Virus record (IMG/VR): IMGVR_UViG_3300031867_004305
Coordinates: 96,001-160,000 of that record
Direction: 5' to 3' (one strand)
DNA length: 64,000 nt
Origin: a virus
Lineage: Duplodnaviria; Caudoviricetes
In this document: one piece after another, positions 42,082-56,235 of the stretch
Position numbering within the stretch: position 1 is the first letter of the stretch
Layout of the letters: each line of letters starts with the position of its first letter
Notes under the pieces: generated by a model
What the model was told of the DNA's origin: nothing
Seen by the model: only the letters and a program-made list of their open reading frames with translations
Database searches by the model: none
Program-made: the position numbers and the translations under genes

Positions 42082-42512
42082 TTAGGTTCCTCCTGTAAAA
42101 ATCCTTCTGTTCGCGACAGTGAAAAGGGGTGGTTGGGGCTAGTAATATAAGCAAAGTAGAACTTATATTGCGTGTTCGCCATTAAAGAACGCTGGGAGTT
42201 CTCTTACCCCATAAGGTAGTCCGGAATACTCACAAGATTCGCTCGGTAACTAATTTTATCGTAACTTGAAATTAGCGGTAGTCAACCTCGTAAGTGTTGG
42301 ACGTGTTGGCCTACGAATAGAAGCTACCAGTCTTCAGGTAAATGGAGAATGAGGTGCCCGGGTGGGCGTGCCAACCAAGAGTAGAAAGAGGCACAATGGA
42401 GTATACACAACGCGAGTGTTTATTCCTACTGTTACTCGCGGCAGGTAGGATGATAGAACTGATGGATTGAGGCCCGGAGGTATTGATTCTGAACTTGCTG
42501 CGAGATTTATAC

Positions 42513-42661
42513 CGATCCCTAGCTCAGTAGGTCTAGAGCAGCGGCCTTCACGAAGTACAATCAAGTAGATGGTCTGAAATTACTCAGGCGGGTGACAGGT
42601 TCAAATCCTTCCTTCGTGACCAATAAGCCGTGTGTCCTGGGTTCGAGTCCCAGGGGATCGA
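42513..42661 (+). tRNA. tRNA-Ile(UAU) interrupted in the anticodon by a 74-nt tRNA-like insert (42549-42622)
   Basis: Exons 42513-42548 and 42623-42661 give a complete cloverleaf with GCGGC-CTT|ATAA-GCCGT. No encoded CCA. Confidence 0.85.
42549..42622 (+). ncRNA. tRNA-mimic insert 1
   Basis: CACGAAG/CTTCGTG acceptor stem plus ACCA; AGG-TTCAAAT-CCT T-arm; central hairpin with a 6-nt loop. Confidence 0.75.
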
Positions 42662-42716
42662 GAGATACATAAACTCAGCCTTCACGTGGCGTATCTTGTT
42701 TTCACTAATGGGTTTA
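42662..42716 (+). ncRNA. Theta (minimal HDV-like) self-cleaving ribozyme at a tRNA 3' end
   Basis: P1 GAGATAC/GTATCTT (G1-U wobble), P2 TAAACTCA/TGGGTTTA, P3 GCC/GGC, L3 TTCACGT, J4/2 CTAA. G1 directly follows the discriminator base. Confidence 0.85.
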
Positions 42717-42741
42717 CTTTATAAAAAGGAGGTATTTAATT

Positions 42742-43380
42742 ATGCCATACATTTATAAAATTGTAAATGATATTAATAATAAAATATATGTTGGGAAAAC
42801 ATTGAAAACAGTTCAAGAAAGATGGAAGCAGCATTTATATGATTATGATAAAAAAAGAAATGAAAAACGACCTTTATATGATGCTATGTTAAAATATGGT
42901 CCTAATCATTTTCATATAGAAGAATTAGAAAATGTTTTAGACGCGACTTTATTAAATGAACGCGAAAAATATTGGATTGAATTTTTACATTCTTTTCAAG
43001 ATGGGTATAACGCCACATGCGGCGGAGATGGGACCCCATATGCTGATTATGCATTAATCTATGAATTATATACAATTCATAACTTAACATTTGAAAAAAT
43101 TCAAAATATAACTAATTATGATATGCGTACTATACGTGCTGCTATTATGAGTTGTGGTATTTCAAAAGAAAATATTGAAAAAATCCGCTTACAAAGATTA
43201 AGAAAGCCTGTAATGCAGTTAGATATAAAAACAGAAGAAATTTTAAAAATTTTTCCTAGTTGTACTGCTGCACAGCGTGAAGTTAGTAATAATCCAAATG
43301 ATTATTCTGGTACTCATATTTCTGCTGTATGCCGTGGCAAAAGACGTACTGCCTATGGTTATAAATGGAAATACTTGTAA
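42742..43380 (+). CDS. GIY-YIG homing endonuclease with NUMOD1-type C-terminus
   Basis: YIYKI.N..N.K.YVGKT, GYN, ISAVCRGKR.TAYGYKW. Confidence 0.9.
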   Translation: MPYIYKIVNDINNKIYVGKTLKTVQERWKQHLYDYDKKRNEKRPLYDAMLKYGPNHFHIEELENVLDATLLNEREKYWIEFLHSFQDGYNATCGGDGTPYADYALIYELYTIHNLTFEKIQNITNYDMRTIRAAIMSCGISKENIEKIRLQRLRKPVMQLDIKTEEILKIFPSCTAAQREVSNNPNDYSGTHISAVCRGKRRTAYGYKWKYL

Positions 43381-45100: not shown

Positions 45101-45281
45101 TTGATTTGGGATGATAATTTATATGACGCGATGAAAGATGTATATGACTATGCCTATCGCGTTTTTTTTGGAAAAGCACCCATAGATGTTACTTATCGTG
45201 TGAATTATGGCAGTAGAGGAGCAGAACAAAAAGTTTTACAGTATATTTGGAACACTTATATTGAACCGAAGGGAGAAAATA

Positions 45282-45863
45282 ATGAGTAATATTTATTTCA
45301 GTAGTGACTTGCATTTTTGTCATAACCGCGGTTTTCTTTATGAGCCACGCGGTTTTTCATCTATCGAAGAACATGACTCTGCCATTATTGAAAACTGGAA
45401 TAAAATAGTTAAAAATAATGATGTTGTTTTTCTACTTGGTGATTTAATGCTTAATGATAATGTAAATGGTATTAAAAAATTAAATAAATTAAATGGCACG
45501 ATATATTACATACGAGGAAACCATTGCTCAAATGCGCGTTGCGTCCTATACGAAGAACAAACTAATATGATTCCGCTATGTAATAATTTCTTTAGTAGTT
45601 GGGCTTCATTAGAAAAAATCAAAGGATATAATTTGTATTTATCTCATTATCCAACTATAATTGGCTCATTAAAAGATATGACGCCATTAAACAAGAGATT
45701 AATAAATCTTCATGGTCATCTTCATAGTAAAAATAAATTCTATCAAGATATTCCTTTTATGTATAATGTAGCACTTGACGCACATAATAACGCGCCCGTA
45801 TCATTTGATGAAATTATTTCAGATATTGAAGCAAAAGCAAATGAATGTATTGCTATGCTATAA
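45282..45863 (+). CDS. Calcineurin-like metallophosphoesterase
   Basis: SDLH, LGD, RGNH, SH.P, HGHLH. Confidence 0.9.
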   Translation: MSNIYFSSDLHFCHNRGFLYEPRGFSSIEEHDSAIIENWNKIVKNNDVVFLLGDLMLNDNVNGIKKLNKLNGTIYYIRGNHCSNARCVLYEEQTNMIPLCNNFFSSWASLEKIKGYNLYLSHYPTIIGSLKDMTPLNKRLINLHGHLHSKNKFYQDIPFMYNVALDAHNNAPVSFDEIISDIEAKANECIAML

Positions 45864-46264: not shown

Positions 46265-47800
46265 ATGAATCGTCTTTACAATGCTATGGCTTCTCAGAAC
46301 ACCTACAAGACTACCGAGAATGGTGCTATCGCACGCACCACGACCAGCTCTAAGCTATATGACCTCTTCTCTTTCGGCGCGGCTTACCGTCAGCGTACCG
46401 AGAGTGATTGCGTGCTACTATTTAAGGAGGCATATAAGGAAAGTCCTATGTATGCCCTAAAGTGCCTGTTCTATATCCGCGATATTCGCGGCGGACAGGG
46501 TGAGCGTCGTTTCTTCCGCACTTGCCTGCATTGGCTTGCGGATTATGACCGCAATGCCGTACTACGCAATCTTGACCAGATTGCTGAGTATGGCCGCTGG
46601 GATGACCTATATGCCCTAGTGGGGACTTCTTGTGAACATGATGCTCTTTATGCTCTTGGCAAGCAGCTTGCCCTTGATTACAAGACCAAGGGTGCTATTT
46701 CCCTTGCCGGTAAGTGGGCAGCTTCAGAGAACGCTTCTTCTGCCAAGACTAAGCGTTATGGTCGTCTAACTGCTCATACTATGGGTCTAACTTCTCGTCA
46801 ATATCGCAAGGTGCTTTCTACCCTTCGTGAGCGTATTCGTGTTCTGGAGCGACTTATGTCCGCAAATCGTTGGAATGAGATTGAATTTGACAAGATTCCT
46901 TCTCGTGCTGGCCTAATCTACAAGAACGCTTTTGCACGCCGTGATATCATCAAGGCGAAGTATGAGTCTTTTGCAAAGGATAAGACTACCAAGGTTAACG
47001 CGGCAGCCCTCTATCCTTACGATGTCGTAGCTAAGGCAATTAAGCTGATGGGCTCTGACAGCTGGTATGGCCGTGGTAATCATGTTGCTCTTGACAATAC
47101 CGATCGTCTAATGATTAACAAGTATTGGGAGAATCTTGTTGATTATCTGACTGGTGCTCCACTAAATGCGGTGGTAGTGGCTGATACAAGCGGAAGTATG
47201 TGTTCAGGTGCTAATAGTGTGGCTCCAATTGATGTTGCTGTTTCTTTGGCTCTATACGCGGCCGAACGTATGCGTGGTCCTTTTGCCAATCATTATATTT
47301 CTTTTAGCCGTAAGGCTCGTTTAATCGAGACTACTGGCGTGGATTTTTGTGATAAGGTAGATAGGATTGTAAGGACGAATCTATGTGAAAATACGAATTT
47401 AGCTTCCGTATTTGACCTTATCCTAAGTACTGCTTGTCACTATAATCTATCTCAAAAGGATATGCCAGAAAGCATTATTATTGTAACAGATATGGAAGTA
47501 GATTCCGCACAGGGTTATTCTTCTTGGGGACGAGCACCTGAATATGGACACGGCGGTAAGGGAATTCAAACCTTTATGGATAAGATGCGTAGTCGTTGGA
47601 CTGACGCAGGATATAAAATGCCAAAAATTGTATTTTGGAACGTAAACGCACGAAATAATACAATTTTGGATGATGGCCCTGATGTTACTAATGTCAGCGG
47701 TTGCTCACCGGTTCTATTTGAATCTATCCTATCTGGAAAAAGTTCTTATGATCTTATGATGGATAAGCTAAATAGTAATCGTTATAAGCCAATTCATTAA
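46265..47800 (+). CDS. DUF2828-type Ro/TROVE-like helical domain plus vWA domain protein
   Basis: TENGA, RDIRGG.GER, YGRWDDL, KW, LYPYD, DTSGSM (MIDAS), TDM, VFWN, VSG.S. Confidence 0.8.
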   Translation: MNRLYNAMASQNTYKTTENGAIARTTTSSKLYDLFSFGAAYRQRTESDCVLLFKEAYKESPMYALKCLFYIRDIRGGQGERRFFRTCLHWLADYDRNAVLRNLDQIAEYGRWDDLYALVGTSCEHDALYALGKQLALDYKTKGAISLAGKWAASENASSAKTKRYGRLTAHTMGLTSRQYRKVLSTLRERIRVLERLMSANRWNEIEFDKIPSRAGLIYKNAFARRDIIKAKYESFAKDKTTKVNAAALYPYDVVAKAIKLMGSDSWYGRGNHVALDNTDRLMINKYWENLVDYLTGAPLNAVVVADTSGSMCSGANSVAPIDVAVSLALYAAERMRGPFANHYISFSRKARLIETTGVDFCDKVDRIVRTNLCENTNLASVFDLILSTACHYNLSQKDMPESIIIVTDMEVDSAQGYSSWGRAPEYGHGGKGIQTFMDKMRSRWTDAGYKMPKIVFWNVNARNNTILDDGPDVTNVSGCSPVLFESILSGKSSYDLMMDKLNSNRYKPIH

Positions 47801-47840: not shown

Positions 47841-48584
47841 ATGGGAAGGCCCGCTAAAGATTTAACAAATCAAAGATTTCAACGATTATTAGTAATTAAG
47901 CGTGATGGTTCTACAGCTGATGGTCATGCTAAATGGTTATGTTTATGTAACTGCGGTAATTATATAAGTGTATCATCCAATAGTTTAAAACGCGGTGATA
48001 CTAAATCTTGTGGATGCTTAAATAAAGATGTAGCAAGAGAAAAAGGTAGACAATCTTATAAAGATCTCACTAATAAACGTTTTAATAAACTAATTGCTAA
48101 AGAATATTTAGGAAGTAATAATAAAGGAAGTGGTTTATGGAGATGCGAATGTGATTGTGGAAATAATAATTTTATTACAACGTCGCACCATTTAATTAGC
48201 AGCAATACGCAAAGCTGTGGTTGCTTAAAATCAAAAGGAGAAGCAAATATAAAACAACTACTTATAAATAATAATATTAATTTTATTTCACAATATTACT
48301 TTAAAGATTTATATTATGAAAGTAATATACCTGTTCGATTTGATTTTTATTTACCCGATTATAACCGATTAATTGAATTTGATGGTATTCAACATTATAC
48401 TTCTGGCGGTGGATGGAACACCGCTGAATTATTTAAACGCAATAAAAAACACGACGAAATTAGAAACCAATATGCCCTTTCCCACAACATTCCTCTCGTT
48501 CGCATACCATATTGGGAACGTGATAATATTACTCTTGAAATGTTATTTAGTGATGAATATTTAGTGAAAGAAGAAGATGAATGA
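47841..48584 (+). CDS. Homing-type endonuclease (Cys-rich repeats plus PD-(D/E)XK/Vsr-like domain)
   Basis: Two W.C.C.CG...SCGC repeats; FDFY, IEFDGIQH, LVRIPYW. Confidence 0.75.
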   Translation: MGRPAKDLTNQRFQRLLVIKRDGSTADGHAKWLCLCNCGNYISVSSNSLKRGDTKSCGCLNKDVAREKGRQSYKDLTNKRFNKLIAKEYLGSNNKGSGLWRCECDCGNNNFITTSHHLISSNTQSCGCLKSKGEANIKQLLINNNINFISQYYFKDLYYESNIPVRFDFYLPDYNRLIEFDGIQHYTSGGGWNTAELFKRNKKHDEIRNQYALSHNIPLVRIPYWERDNITLEMLFSDEYLVKEEDE

Positions 48585-48603
48585 AAATTCATCTTCTTTT
48601 TTA

Positions 48604-48632
48604 TTGACTAAATATAAAAATTATAGTATAAT
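48604..48632 (+). promoter_or_regulatory. SigA-type promoter
   Basis: TTGACT-N17-TATAAT. Confidence 0.7.
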
Positions 48633-48654
48633 AATTATAGAAAGGATGAGGAAT

Positions 48655-49011
48655 ATGAATTATTATATCTATCTTGATGATGTACGCGAAGATGATACTT
48701 GGTTTCGGCAACATTTAAATACAGAGCATTGGATTCCTTGCGTTGTTCGTTCCTATGATGAAGTAATTCATGTTCTCAATCATATGCGAGATTATATGAA
48801 TGAGAATGAAGTGCTTATTCTTGACCTCGACCACGACCTTGGCGAAACTGAAGAAGGCTATAATGAACTCGCGCGCACAGGATATGACGTTTGTAAGTGG
48901 ATTGTTGAAAACGATTTTCAAAATCTTTACTTTCATATACATAGTATGAACCCCGTTGGGTCTGCAAATATGCGGCAACTTCTTACTCATTATGGATATA
49001 AGGAGATTTAG
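48655..49011 (+). CDS. Cyclic-phosphate-processing receiver (REC-like) domain protein
   Basis: YLDD.R, LDHDLG, TGYD..KW, IHSMNPVG. Confidence 0.75.
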   Translation: MNYYIYLDDVREDDTWFRQHLNTEHWIPCVVRSYDEVIHVLNHMRDYMNENEVLILDLDHDLGETEEGYNELARTGYDVCKWIVENDFQNLYFHIHSMNPVGSANMRQLLTHYGYKEI

Positions 49012-53586: not shown

Positions 53587-53721
53587 CCACGCGTGGTGCA
53601 AATGGCGAGACACAGCGGACTTACGTAGGCCCAGTGGCTTGTTGGAGAGCAACACTCCTTCCTACGACCAAAATCCGCGACGCAAGATACATTGCTGGTT
53701 CAAATCCAGTCGCGTGGACCA
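53587..53721 (+). tRNA. tRNA-Leu(UAA) interrupted in the anticodon by a 47-nt minihelix insert (53624-53670)
   Basis: Exons give GCGGA-CTTA|AAA-TCCGC, long variable region, CCACGCG/CGCGTGG acceptor stem, ACCA. Confidence 0.85.
53624..53670 (+). ncRNA. tRNA-mimic insert 2 (acceptor stem plus T-arm)
   Basis: CGTAGG/CCTACG plus ACCA; GGAG-AGCAACA-CTCC hairpin with a 7-nt loop. Confidence 0.7.
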
Positions 53722-53879: not shown

Positions 53880-54836
53880 ATGGAAACTTACACAAATATT
53901 TGGTTAGATATTTCAGAAGAACAATGGAGAAAAATTATTTCTACTAGTCTAACTCGTGCAGAGGTCGCACGCAAAGTTAATCGTTGTCCCAATTCAAGTT
54001 TTAATGAGCGTTTAAAAAAATATTGTGATGAACATAATATCTCTATTGAACATTTTACAATTAATGAAAATGGCAATAAAGAGAAATATCAACTTGAAGA
54101 AATTCTAGTAGAAAACTCTCCTGCTTCGAGAAAAACATTAAGAGACTATTTAGCAAAATATAACATTCTAGAATATAAATGTGCTATTTGCGGGAATGTT
54201 GGAGAATGGAATGGAGTTTCTTTAACTTTACAAATAGACCATATTAATGGAATAAATAATGATAATAGAAAAGAAAATCTTCGTTGGTTATGTCCAAATT
54301 GTCATTCTCAAACTGACACGTTTACTGGGAAAAATAAAACTAAAAAAGAAGTTGTTAATTTCACAGTAGAAGAAGCGATTAAAGCATTAAGACAAACTGA
54401 AAATGTAAATCAAGCAACTAAATTAATCGGTTGTGCGCAAGGTGGAGCAAATTGGATTAGAGTAAATGATATTAAGAAAGAATATGGAATTGTTCAATCT
54501 GGAGATTTAAAAAAAGAAGAAAAATATAAGTTTGAAGAAAATCATATTAATGTAAAACCAATGAACTTTATTAAATTATGTAAAAAGTGCGGTCGTCCAT
54601 TATCGACAAAAGATGCTGAGTATTGTCAAACTTGTATTCACGAATTTCAACGAAAATGTGAATGGCCTTCCCGCGAAGAACTTAAAAAATTAATCCGTTC
54701 CACACCTTTTTTACAAATAGGTAAAAAATATAATGTAAGTGATAACGCTGTAAGAAAATGGTGTTTAAATTACGGTTTACCATCTAAAAAAAAGGAAATC
54801 AAAGCAATTTCAGATGAAGAGTGGGCTACCATTTGA
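53880..54836 (+). CDS. HNH endonuclease
   Basis: C..CG...LQIDHING...DNR.ENLR.LCPNCH. Confidence 0.9.
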   Translation: METYTNIWLDISEEQWRKIISTSLTRAEVARKVNRCPNSSFNERLKKYCDEHNISIEHFTINENGNKEKYQLEEILVENSPASRKTLRDYLAKYNILEYKCAICGNVGEWNGVSLTLQIDHINGINNDNRKENLRWLCPNCHSQTDTFTGKNKTKKEVVNFTVEEAIKALRQTENVNQATKLIGCAQGGANWIRVNDIKKEYGIVQSGDLKKEEKYKFEENHINVKPMNFIKLCKKCGRPLSTKDAEYCQTCIHEFQRKCEWPSREELKKLIRSTPFLQIGKKYNVSDNAVRKWCLNYGLPSKKKEIKAISDEEWATI

Positions 54837-55649: not shown

Positions 55650-56235
55650 ATACCCTATTTAATAAAATGGTTGAACCAAGTGAAGAAGAGCTAACCACTC
55701 TGCTTGGACTATCCGAAAAACAGCCCCAAACTTGATGGGATACTTTCAAGCCAAGGCCGCGAAATCAGTAATGATTAGCGATATGGAGAAACTCCTAATG
55801 TTAAGGGTAGGTGCTTGGTTATCCGCTAACAAAAACTTGGCTCCTCGCGGCGTCGTAATAGAAGGTGGGCGTTAAAAGCGTGACCTGAATCCAAGTTAGG
55901 CGTAGGATGGCTGCCACCGCAAACCTTGGAAATGCCAACAAGACGCTTGGTGTCGTTGAAACCTAGAAATAGGATATAAGCGAGGTTCACAGAAAAAGTA
56001 GCCCAAAACGACAATGATTCTAATAGATATTTGTAAATATTACTTGGAATTATTGTGCTGAACGGTTCGGGTGAAATTTGAGAGTAAGCAATCTCTCCGT
56101 TGCTCACCGAAAGGTAGGGTGAAGAAGTCCGGAATTGCTACCCGTGGCTCAGCCTTCATCTTCAACGTGGTTGAATATGTTAGAAGGATAATACAAGTAC
56201 GACGAAGGTCGCAACGGTTTTATTAAATAGGGTAT
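55650..56235 (+). ncRNA. ROOL-like large RNA (about 586 nt)
   Basis: Terminal stem ATACCCTATTTAATAAAA/TTTTATTAAATAGGGTAT. Size and ordered motifs (AATCCAAGTTAGG, AAGTAGC, GCTGAACGGTTCGGGTGAAA, GCTCAGCC, GTTGAATA) match ROOL as I recall it. tRNA-cluster context. Confidence 0.7.

Follow-up and report, generated by a model that had tools for sequence, protein, structure and literature searches.

To our knowledge, bacteria and their viruses are thought to remove introns from tRNAs only by self-splicing, and protein-dependent tRNA splicing is regarded as a trait of archaea and eukaryotes. Group I introns splice themselves: they are ribozymes of some 200 nt or more that share a conserved core and end in G. 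The bulge-helix-bulge (BHB) motif consists of two 3-nt bulges on opposite strands, with a 4-bp helix between them. In the tRNA punctuation of mitochondrial transcripts and in the release of mascRNA from MALAT1, an embedded tRNA shape is cut out of a longer RNA by RNase P and RNase Z. The tRNAs of Lak megaphages carry conserved 'enigmatic' introns, nearly identical in sequence from genome to genome, that are present in some genomes and absent from others and for which no mechanism was given (Devoto et al. 2019, PMC6784885); one of them, in a putative tRNA-Thr, 'itself may encode a tRNA' (PMC6784885). Here we describe a phage tRNA-Ile(UAU) gene whose anticodon is split by a tRNA-shaped insert. 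The gene occupies positions 42513-42661 of the window, the whole 64,000-nt stretch of DNA that was analysed, which corresponds to positions 96001-160000 of the single-contig, 181,042-bp virus record G000:C1. The genome, G000, has a GC content of 36.6%, uses the standard code and bears a long tRNA array and a ROOL RNA.

We propose that this tRNA-Ile(UAU) is functional, that its insert is descended from a nested tRNA(CUA), and that the insert would be cut out by RNase P together with a nuclease acting after the CCA, the exons then being ligated. This reading has in our estimate a probability of roughly 0.55. There is good support for regarding the insert as a true intervening sequence and the tRNA-Ile(UAU) gene around it as live.

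Anatomy and allelic states of the tRNA-Ile(UAU) locus

The anticodon is split between U34 and A35 by an insert of 74 nt (42549-42622; Table 1). The locus is skipped by ARAGORN run without introns and by Rfam at the gathering score. With introns allowed, ARAGORN calls a tRNA at exactly the limits of the gene, with a 74-nt intron and an anticodon read as TCT or TCA according to the placement of the boundary, and exact deletion of the insert yields tRNA-Ile(TAT). The initial annotation of this DNA had predicted that removing the insert restores a full tRNA with the loop CTT|ATAA; this is borne out by ARAGORN and by naturally intact alleles, which read the predicted junction. The placement of the boundary to give UAU rather than UCU or UCA fits the synteny with intact tRNA-Ile(UAU) genes of relatives: the order Trp ... 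Ile ... Cys, shared with intact tRNA-Ile(TAT) in L007 and L008, supports the Ile reading. The anticodons UCU (Arg) and UCA are ruled out by the intact alleles, by synteny and by a separate tRNA-Arg(UCU) in the genome. The interrupted gene is the only tRNA of the genome called as Ile, and ATA accounts for 27% of Ile codons. In intron mode ARAGORN called no tRNA whatever in ten dinucleotide-shuffled versions of the whole 181-kb genome. An assembly artefact is ruled out, the interrupted locus recurring on independent IMG/VR and JGI/other metagenome contigs.

The insert itself is built as a degenerate tRNA, with a 7-bp acceptor stem, a reduced D arm whose loop lacks GG, a T arm with a bulged stem and the loop TTCAAAT, a discriminator A and a CCA, so that its 3' end reads ACCA. 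A 6-nt loop occupies the place of the anticodon loop, in keeping with the initial description of an insert with an acceptor stem, a T loop and a terminal ACCA but no usable anticodon loop. Over its whole length the insert can be aligned to the Rfam tRNA model, with a score of 22.1 bits that falls short of the 29-bit gathering threshold, and in isolation it draws no tRNA call from ARAGORN; its minimum-energy fold consists of the terminal stem with a free ACCA. The outer tRNA-Ile encodes no CCA, its discriminator being followed by GAG (42659-42664). A CCA is encoded in the outer tRNA-Ile of L021 and in most tRNAs of the array, and the inner element always encodes one. The exclusion of known intron types in the initial annotation also holds. 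Intron_gpI gives no match, and no Rfam intron family is found in the window at the gathering score or in 42400-42760 at E values up to 10. The BHB geometry is absent as well: both junctions flank one and the same 7-bp helix, with the 5' site at the foot of this helix and the 3' site 4 nt past its 3' strand.

A search of related genomes with the whole locus returned G004 (94% identity) and G002 (75%), and a probe made from exon 2 returned further copies from IMG/VR and metagenomes, for a total of 10 distinct alleles. These occur in three states: intact, with a degenerate insert (type A), and with a slightly longer insert (type B). A single identical exon background is found intact, with a 74-nt insert and with a 77-nt insert. 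Related phages hold both intron-less alleles and tRNA halves around NCCA-ending inserts, the two kinds of relative by which the initial annotation had thought its idea could be checked. Type B inserts are complete tRNAs, with a 4-bp D stem, a GG-containing D loop, a 7-nt loop bearing the anticodon CUA and a perfect 5-bp T stem; they score 47.8-49.4 bits against the Rfam tRNA model and are called by ARAGORN as tRNA(cta) over positions 1-77. With the inserts left in, the outer genes score 42.8-50.8 bits against the same model.

Covariation extends over both the outer and the inner tRNA. Across the alignment of Ile alleles the proposed structure is paired in 100% of cells, and exon 1 is the same or covarying in all 10 alleles. 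Compensatory changes affect five of the seven outer acceptor pairs, two of the seven inner acceptor pairs (pair 1, C-G to G-C; pair 3, C-G to U-A) and a single pair of the inner T stem; a further T-stem pair, judged by eye, is A-U, G-C or U-A among the alleles. The inserts homologous to that of the window (L021, L040, L022, L031 and L037) vary by compensation in both the acceptor and the T stem. The covariation score was matched by none of 500 shuffles, and slid registers are only 31-49% paired. Decayed exons or an insert without covariation, which the initial annotation had named as speaking against splicing, are not what is seen: exons and insert both carry compensatory changes. In the degenerate inserts the stems are kept, and the loop that replaces the anticodon loop differs in all three alleles. 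The best explanation is that the degenerate insert descends from a complete nested tRNA(CUA) still present in some relatives.

In the sampled DNA, position 26 is G in every intact Ile allele and A in the interrupted alleles, except L040. Exact probes for the outer T arm and acceptor of the window gene and for the 3' end of its insert found no match elsewhere, and the acceptor variant of its outer tRNA-Ile appears unique so far. Used as a query for related loci, the 643-aa protein encoded upstream found nothing, and a D-arm probe matched only unrelated phages with tRNA-Ile(GAU). The annotated phage collection contained no relative; the sole match was that of a GIY-YIG gene to T4 segB-type genes.

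The nested tRNA(CUA) of L022 (1533-1609, minus strand; within 91253-91404 of G002:C1) is the only amber-reading tRNA of the complete 169-kb genome G002. Its loop has G32 and C38, which could pair. G002 behaves as a standard-code genome in which TAG is the rarest stop (15 of 137). Recoding of TAG as the reason for the nested tRNA(CUA) is ruled out, G000 and G002 both behaving as standard-code.

Nesting might instead serve mainly for co-expression or regulation. What matters would then be the inner RNA, in some phages a suppressor tRNA(CUA) and in others a decoy or a protein-binding RNA, whose liberation would go hand in hand with the maturing of the outer tRNA. This would account for type B inserts that are complete tRNAs above the Rfam threshold, including the only CUA tRNA of G002, and it finds some encouragement in the AGCAA/GCAAG-type loops carried by the inserts of tRNA-Leu and tRNA-Asn (below), which recall a dispersed stem-loop family. 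It sits poorly with standard-code genomes that have no obvious need for an amber suppressor, with a window insert that has lost a usable anticodon loop and varies freely in the loop that replaced it, and with the intact alleles, which show that the outer tRNA works without the insert. We consider it very improbable as the explanation of the locus; it is nonetheless compatible with excision by tRNA end-processing enzymes and ligation of the exons, and not exclusive of them.

Table 1. Features of the window (coordinates, plus strand) and alleles of related phages (locus and genome handles).
Feature	Position or allele	Strand	Description and evidence
Exon 1 of tRNA-Ile(UAU), 36 nt	42513..42548	+	acceptor 5' strand, D arm, 5' anticodon stem, loop C32 U33 U34 (CTT)
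tRNA-shaped insert, degenerate 'type A', 74 nt	42549..42622	+	Rfam tRNA 22.1 bits, folds, homologous inserts
Exon 2 of tRNA-Ile(UAU), 39 nt	42623..42661	+	A35 U36 A37 A38, 3' anticodon stem, variable loop, T arm, acceptor 3' strand, discriminator A
Exon 1 of class II tRNA-Leu(UAA)	53587..53623	+	ARAGORN, covariation
Minihelix insert of tRNA-Leu(UAA), 47 nt	53624..53670	+	6-bp stem, internal hairpin with 7-nt loop, ACCA
Exon 2 of tRNA-Leu(UAA)	53671..53721	+	CCA encoded
Intact Ile alleles, n=4	L028/L039, L029/L038, L034, L041		CTT followed directly by ATAA
Ile alleles with ~74-nt degenerate insert, n=3	window; L021 = L033 = L035; L040
Ile alleles with 76-77-nt insert, n=3	L022 = L030; L031 = L032 = L036; L037
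tRNA-Lys(UUU) with 105-nt insert	L016
tRNA-Lys(UUU) with unrelated 70-nt insert	G002
tRNA-Glu(UUC) with 44-nt insert	L017, L008
tRNA-Asn(GUU) with 50-nt insert	L008
Candidate exon sealer: RNA ligase, PF09414 (Rnl2-like nucleotidyltransferase) superfamily, 216 aa	49440..50090	+	58.5 bits, cut-off 27
Metallophosphoesterase, candidate RNA end-healing enzyme	45207..45863	+	phrog_547, E 6e-47
DUF2828/DUF7788 protein	46265..47800	+	Pfam; PHROG label RNA-binding protein
cRec (cyclic-phosphate-processing receiver) domain protein	48577..49011	+	PF20274, 71.8 bits
Free-standing GIY-YIG/NUMOD1 homing endonuclease gene	42742..43380	+	Pfam; DNA similarity to T4 segB-type genes
HNH endonuclease gene, just downstream of the Leu(UAA)/Leu(CAA) pair	53880..54836	+	PF01844, 24 bits

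Inserts in other tRNAs and their probable movement among phages

A second interrupted gene of the window, the tRNA-Leu(UAA) at 53587-53721, carries a shorter insert of 47 nt. Its exact deletion yields tRNA-Leu(TAA) in ARAGORN, and the intact allele L011:14533-14620 reads the predicted junction. This is the only Leu(UAA) tRNA of the genome, in which TTA makes up 41% of Leu codons. The insert was found in 11 copies on at least six exon backgrounds, and 97.4% of the cells in their alignment are paired. Changes are compensatory in six of the seven outer acceptor pairs, compensatory double changes are seen also in pairs of the D, variable and T stems, and one pair of the insert stem changes from A-U to G-C. 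The covariation score was matched by none of 500 shuffles, slid registers being 34-50% paired. The insert is almost invariant and the adjoining outer anticodon stem never varies. In tRNA-Leu(UAA) of the window type the variable arm (53679-53693) has no obvious stem, the same holding for L008, L017 and the intact L011; in other backgrounds the arm is paired and covarying.

Relatives were collected as neighbourhoods fetched through the RNA ligase and as IMG/VR contigs found with a probe for the 47-nt insert, and they form a family of phages of about 165-190 kb with syntenic tRNA arrays. Six insert families were found, in the tRNAs for Ile, Leu, Lys (two families), Glu and Asn; the Glu, Asn and Lys tRNA genes of the window are intact. 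All six share one architecture: a terminal stem of 6-8 bp that starts at the first base of the insert (by unconstrained folding, and by hand for the Lys insert of G002) and an ACCA directly before exon 2. In 14 of 14 tests, cutting out the insert exactly, beginning with the first base of its stem and finishing with the A of CCA, left a tRNA that ARAGORN accepts and whose loop has 7 nt. The break falls at 34|35 or 35|36, and the base before the insert is U in four of the six families. Several anticodon nucleases cut these same bonds, a coincidence that may hint at how the inserts arose. No copy of an insert standing by itself was found in the DNA of the window genome and of the relatives searched.

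Inserts are better conserved than exons, and insert variants are shuffled among exon backgrounds: the exons of insert-bearing copies differ at up to about a quarter of positions, the inserts being nearly invariant. The evidence points to an element that is gained and lost and recombines among related phages at the DNA level. Such an element might involve no splicing. A mobile tRNA-like DNA element would then inactivate dispensable tRNA genes, leaving an inner RNA and two tRNA halves as products, and the exons would appear intact through recency, recombination or homing. Co-conversion predicts just such nearly invariant inserts among variable exons beside an invariant anticodon stem, the occurrence of an identical exon background in three states can be read in the same way, and HNH or GIY-YIG genes (some of them weak matches) lie about 0.1-0.8 kb downstream of 8 of the 16 interrupted sites. 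At the Ile locus, however, the endonuclease gene does not track the insert: the GIY-YIG/NUMOD1 gene stands 81 nt downstream of the interrupted tRNA-Ile of the window and is absent from that position at the other Ile alleles. A homing endonuclease as the general driver at this locus was rejected, since only the window has one and the other interrupted alleles share the 324-aa neighbour of the intact alleles. The link between endonucleases and inserts is circumstantial, the region being rich in such genes anyway.

The state of the exons and the form of the inserts argue further against inactivation. No exon helix is broken in any of 20 distinct interrupted alleles from the six insert families, and since it was the insert or the ligase that led to the Leu copies, and not their exons, the choice of that sample was not biased by exon state. 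No mechanism acting at the DNA level accounts for the match of every insert to the limits of a mature tRNA, from its 5' end to its CCA. Degenerate inserts keep acceptor stem, T stem and CCA by compensation while the anticodon-like loop drifts. The interrupted genes are, moreover, the sole decoders of abundant codons. That splicing is absent altogether appears to us quite improbable.

The codons read by the interrupted tRNAs of the window, L008, L016, L017 and G002 are all A/U-rich (AUA, UUA, AAA, GAA and AAY). The loops of AGCAA/GCAAG type in the Leu and Asn inserts resemble an extra arm of the intact tRNA-Ile(UAU) of L008 (7009-7098, plus strand), an unusual arm of about 19 nt with a CCT-AGCA-AGG hairpin, as well as a dispersed 'CAGCAA stem' family at 38472-61327 of the window. 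The tRNA array also holds a full-length ROOL RNA (307-324 bits) in the window (55652-56230, plus strand), in L016 (5801-6394, minus strand) and in L017 (9002-9570, plus strand), its position between Leu(UAG) and Asn(GUU) being kept across relatives. A 'drum' RNA (RF02958, 70.8 bits) occurs at 3980-4091 of L017 (plus strand), in the tRNA region of the close relative G003.

Proposed excision and the RNA-repair genes

From the observed anatomy, allelic states, covariation and co-occurring genes we infer the following enzymatic steps. The whole interrupted unit would be transcribed. Host RNase P would cleave where the inner acceptor stem begins and leave exon 1 with a 3'-OH, and a 3' tRNase would cut right after the inner CCA, leaving exon 2 with a 5'-phosphate, as an RNase Z-type cut does. 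The best candidate for the 3' nuclease is an RNase Z cutting after CCA, with RNase E-type cleavage as the alternative. The tRNA halves would be held together by the outer acceptor and anticodon stems until the PF09414 ligase of the phage sealed the nick, giving the loop CUUAUAA. Ends of 3'-OH and 5'-phosphate are those that PF09414 ATP-dependent ligases join.

This proposal is favoured because the features that selection has kept in otherwise unrelated inserts are those read by tRNA end-processing enzymes. The insert of the window genome has been reduced to these alone: an acceptor stem beginning right at the junction, the T arm stacked upon it, a purine discriminator and the CCA. Bacterial RNase P recognizes stacked acceptor and T stems and a 3' RCCA, with U preferred at position -1 (PMC9433436). 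The window insert has these substrate features in sequence and fold, with its 7-bp stem, its T arm, its ACCA and a T at 42548. The RNase Z of Thermotoga maritima, of archaea (methanogens) and, less efficiently, of Bacillus subtilis cuts immediately after an encoded CCA, and the CCA-cutting enzyme requires a mature 5' end and an acceptor stem (PMC7479834). RNase Z and a CCA-adding enzyme were not found in G000.

The candidate ligase is encoded between the two interrupted tRNAs of the window, within an RNA-repair cassette. Its likeness to T4 Rnl2-type ligases holds at the level of the PF09414 nucleotidyltransferase domain but not of the equivalog (25.3 bits against TIGR02307, with a cut-off of 197) or of the C-terminal domain: similarity to the T4 Rnl2 structures 1s68 and 2hvq (E 0.0065) covers the N-terminal domain only, and the protein has 216 aa against about 330 aa in Rnl2. 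A search for T4 Rnl1 gave no match, but was run without a positive control and is uninformative. Homologues of the ligase number in the thousands, many of them 70-92% identical and located on metagenomic contigs of 90-190 kb. All six insert-bearing genomes that were checked encode a PF09414 ligase, and in five of these cases it was the insert, not the ligase, that had led to the genome. The same cassette encodes a metallophosphoesterase, a cRec domain protein and a DUF2828/DUF7788 protein, for which we assume a Ro/TROVE-like link. A homing-endonuclease-like gene (phrog_559/374/9084; 47841-48584, plus strand) stands between the last two and is absent there in L011 and L007. In L007 (6531-9160, plus strand) the DUF2828/DUF7788 gene appears to be split into an 81-aa DUF2828 fragment, a GIY-YIG/NUMOD3 endonuclease and a 439-aa remainder, which may represent an intron or a split gene.

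Several observations weigh against excision by RNase P and a 3' tRNase followed by ligation. The CCA strongly inhibits B. subtilis RNase Z under Mg2+ (PMC7479834), and in the Leu insert the hairpin loop departs from the canonical T loop. The ligase is a distant, single-domain relative of Rnl2; it is widespread in the family and occurs also where no insert is near (L011), which makes co-occurrence weak evidence. The integrity of the exons could in part reflect recent insertion and not later selection, given that inserts vary less than exons and are exchanged between backgrounds by recombination. Finally, the cRec and phosphoesterase neighbours point to a cassette concerned with cyclic-phosphate ends, and neither RNase P nor RNase Z produces these.

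These neighbours raise the alternative that the insert is removed and the exons rejoined by other machinery, either a phage or host endonuclease leaving a 2',3'-cyclic phosphate and a 5'-OH, to be healed by the phosphoesterase and cRec, or self-cleavage of the insert. Metallophosphoesterase, cRec and ligase are clustered between the two interrupted tRNAs, some bacterial RNase Z enzymes are inhibited by CCA as noted, and cRec, whose role is only predicted, is held to process cyclic phosphates and is often linked to RNA ligase genes, in phages among others (PMC7824862). Several findings speak against a pathway of this kind: the annotated neighbours showed no polynucleotide kinase domain, neither G000 nor G001 has RtcB, the only match to the splicing endonuclease EndA (PF01974) reaches 11.9 bits against a cut-off of 27, there is no BHB, and no ribozyme family matches even at E values up to 10. 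It would also leave unexplained why tRNA-end determinants are kept across six unrelated insert families. We regard such machinery as an unlikely alternative to RNase P, a 3' tRNase and the ligase.

More generally, a third route of tRNA splicing may operate in bacterial phages, in which an intron shaped like a tRNA or its top half would be excised by RNase P and an after-CCA tRNase and the anticodon rejoined by a repair ligase; in some phages the excised intron would be a working amber suppressor, one gene giving two tRNAs. We advance this broader scheme tentatively, at slightly less than even odds. If true, it would be a new splicing pathway assembled from housekeeping enzymes and an RNA-repair ligase, phage RNA ligases would gain a constitutive job beyond damage repair, and the 'enigmatic' introns of Lak phages would be explained. 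The allelic series, with intact genes, complete nested tRNAs and degenerate minihelices on identical exons, makes the question directly testable. Since standard tRNA finders miss such genes, phage tRNA repertoires are under-counted; in G000 both the only Ile-called tRNA and the only Leu(UAA) tRNA are missed in this way.

Comparison with known tRNA introns and tRNA repair

The headline observation has a precedent in another phage group. As in the published description of the Lak introns, a highly conserved intervening sequence is present in a phage tRNA of some relatives and absent from that of others. An intron readable as a tRNA is likewise seen in the type B inserts at 47.8-49.4 bits, the window insert being sub-threshold at 22.1. 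The Lak phages are Prevotella phages of ~540 kb with an alternative code, whereas the present family consists of standard-code phages, of ~181 kb in the case of the window genome; for the Lak introns the authors offered neither an architecture rule nor a covariation analysis nor a mechanism, whereas here six insert families follow one rule and the alleles form a three-state series. The literature searched in full text contained no paper on tRNA-shaped introns beyond Devoto 2019, and a 2026 jumbo-phage review is silent on them. Neither the rule of insert architecture nor the series of alleles, the covariation or the proposed pathway was found in the literature searched. The 'new intron class' of the initial annotation can be kept only with a qualification, since 'enigmatic' introns of phage tRNAs, including one that possibly codes for a tRNA, had been published earlier (PMC6784885).

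Group I introns of bacterial and phage tRNAs, for instance in the tRNA-Leu(UAA) of cyanobacteria and plastids, resemble the inserts in their site in the anticodon loop, their mobility, their presence or absence among relatives and their frequent association with homing endonucleases. The inserts differ from them in their length of 44-105 nt, in ending in A and in matching no intron family. With the protein-spliced introns of archaea and eukaryotes the inserts share a short, non-catalytic form and a position in or near the anticodon loop, and the removal proposed here would likewise require an endonuclease and a ligase; Trl1 ligase and T4-type RNA repair enzymes are related. Unlike in BHB introns, recognition would be of the tRNA shape of the intron itself and not of a helix at the exon-intron junction, and neither EndA nor RtcB would take part. 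In tRNA punctuation and the release of mascRNA the flanks of the embedded tRNA shape are not rejoined, whereas here the flanks are tRNA halves that would need ligation within the anticodon.

The repair of PrrC-cleaved tRNA-Lys in T4 by Pnkp and Rnl1 offers a parallel in which a phage ligase likewise acts at a break in the anticodon loop, and in which the tRNA and RNA-repair region is rich in homing endonucleases such as segB. In T4 the break is damage inflicted by a host nuclease and the ligase is Rnl1; here it would be a programmed step of tRNA maturation, sealed by a ligase of the PF09414 superfamily.

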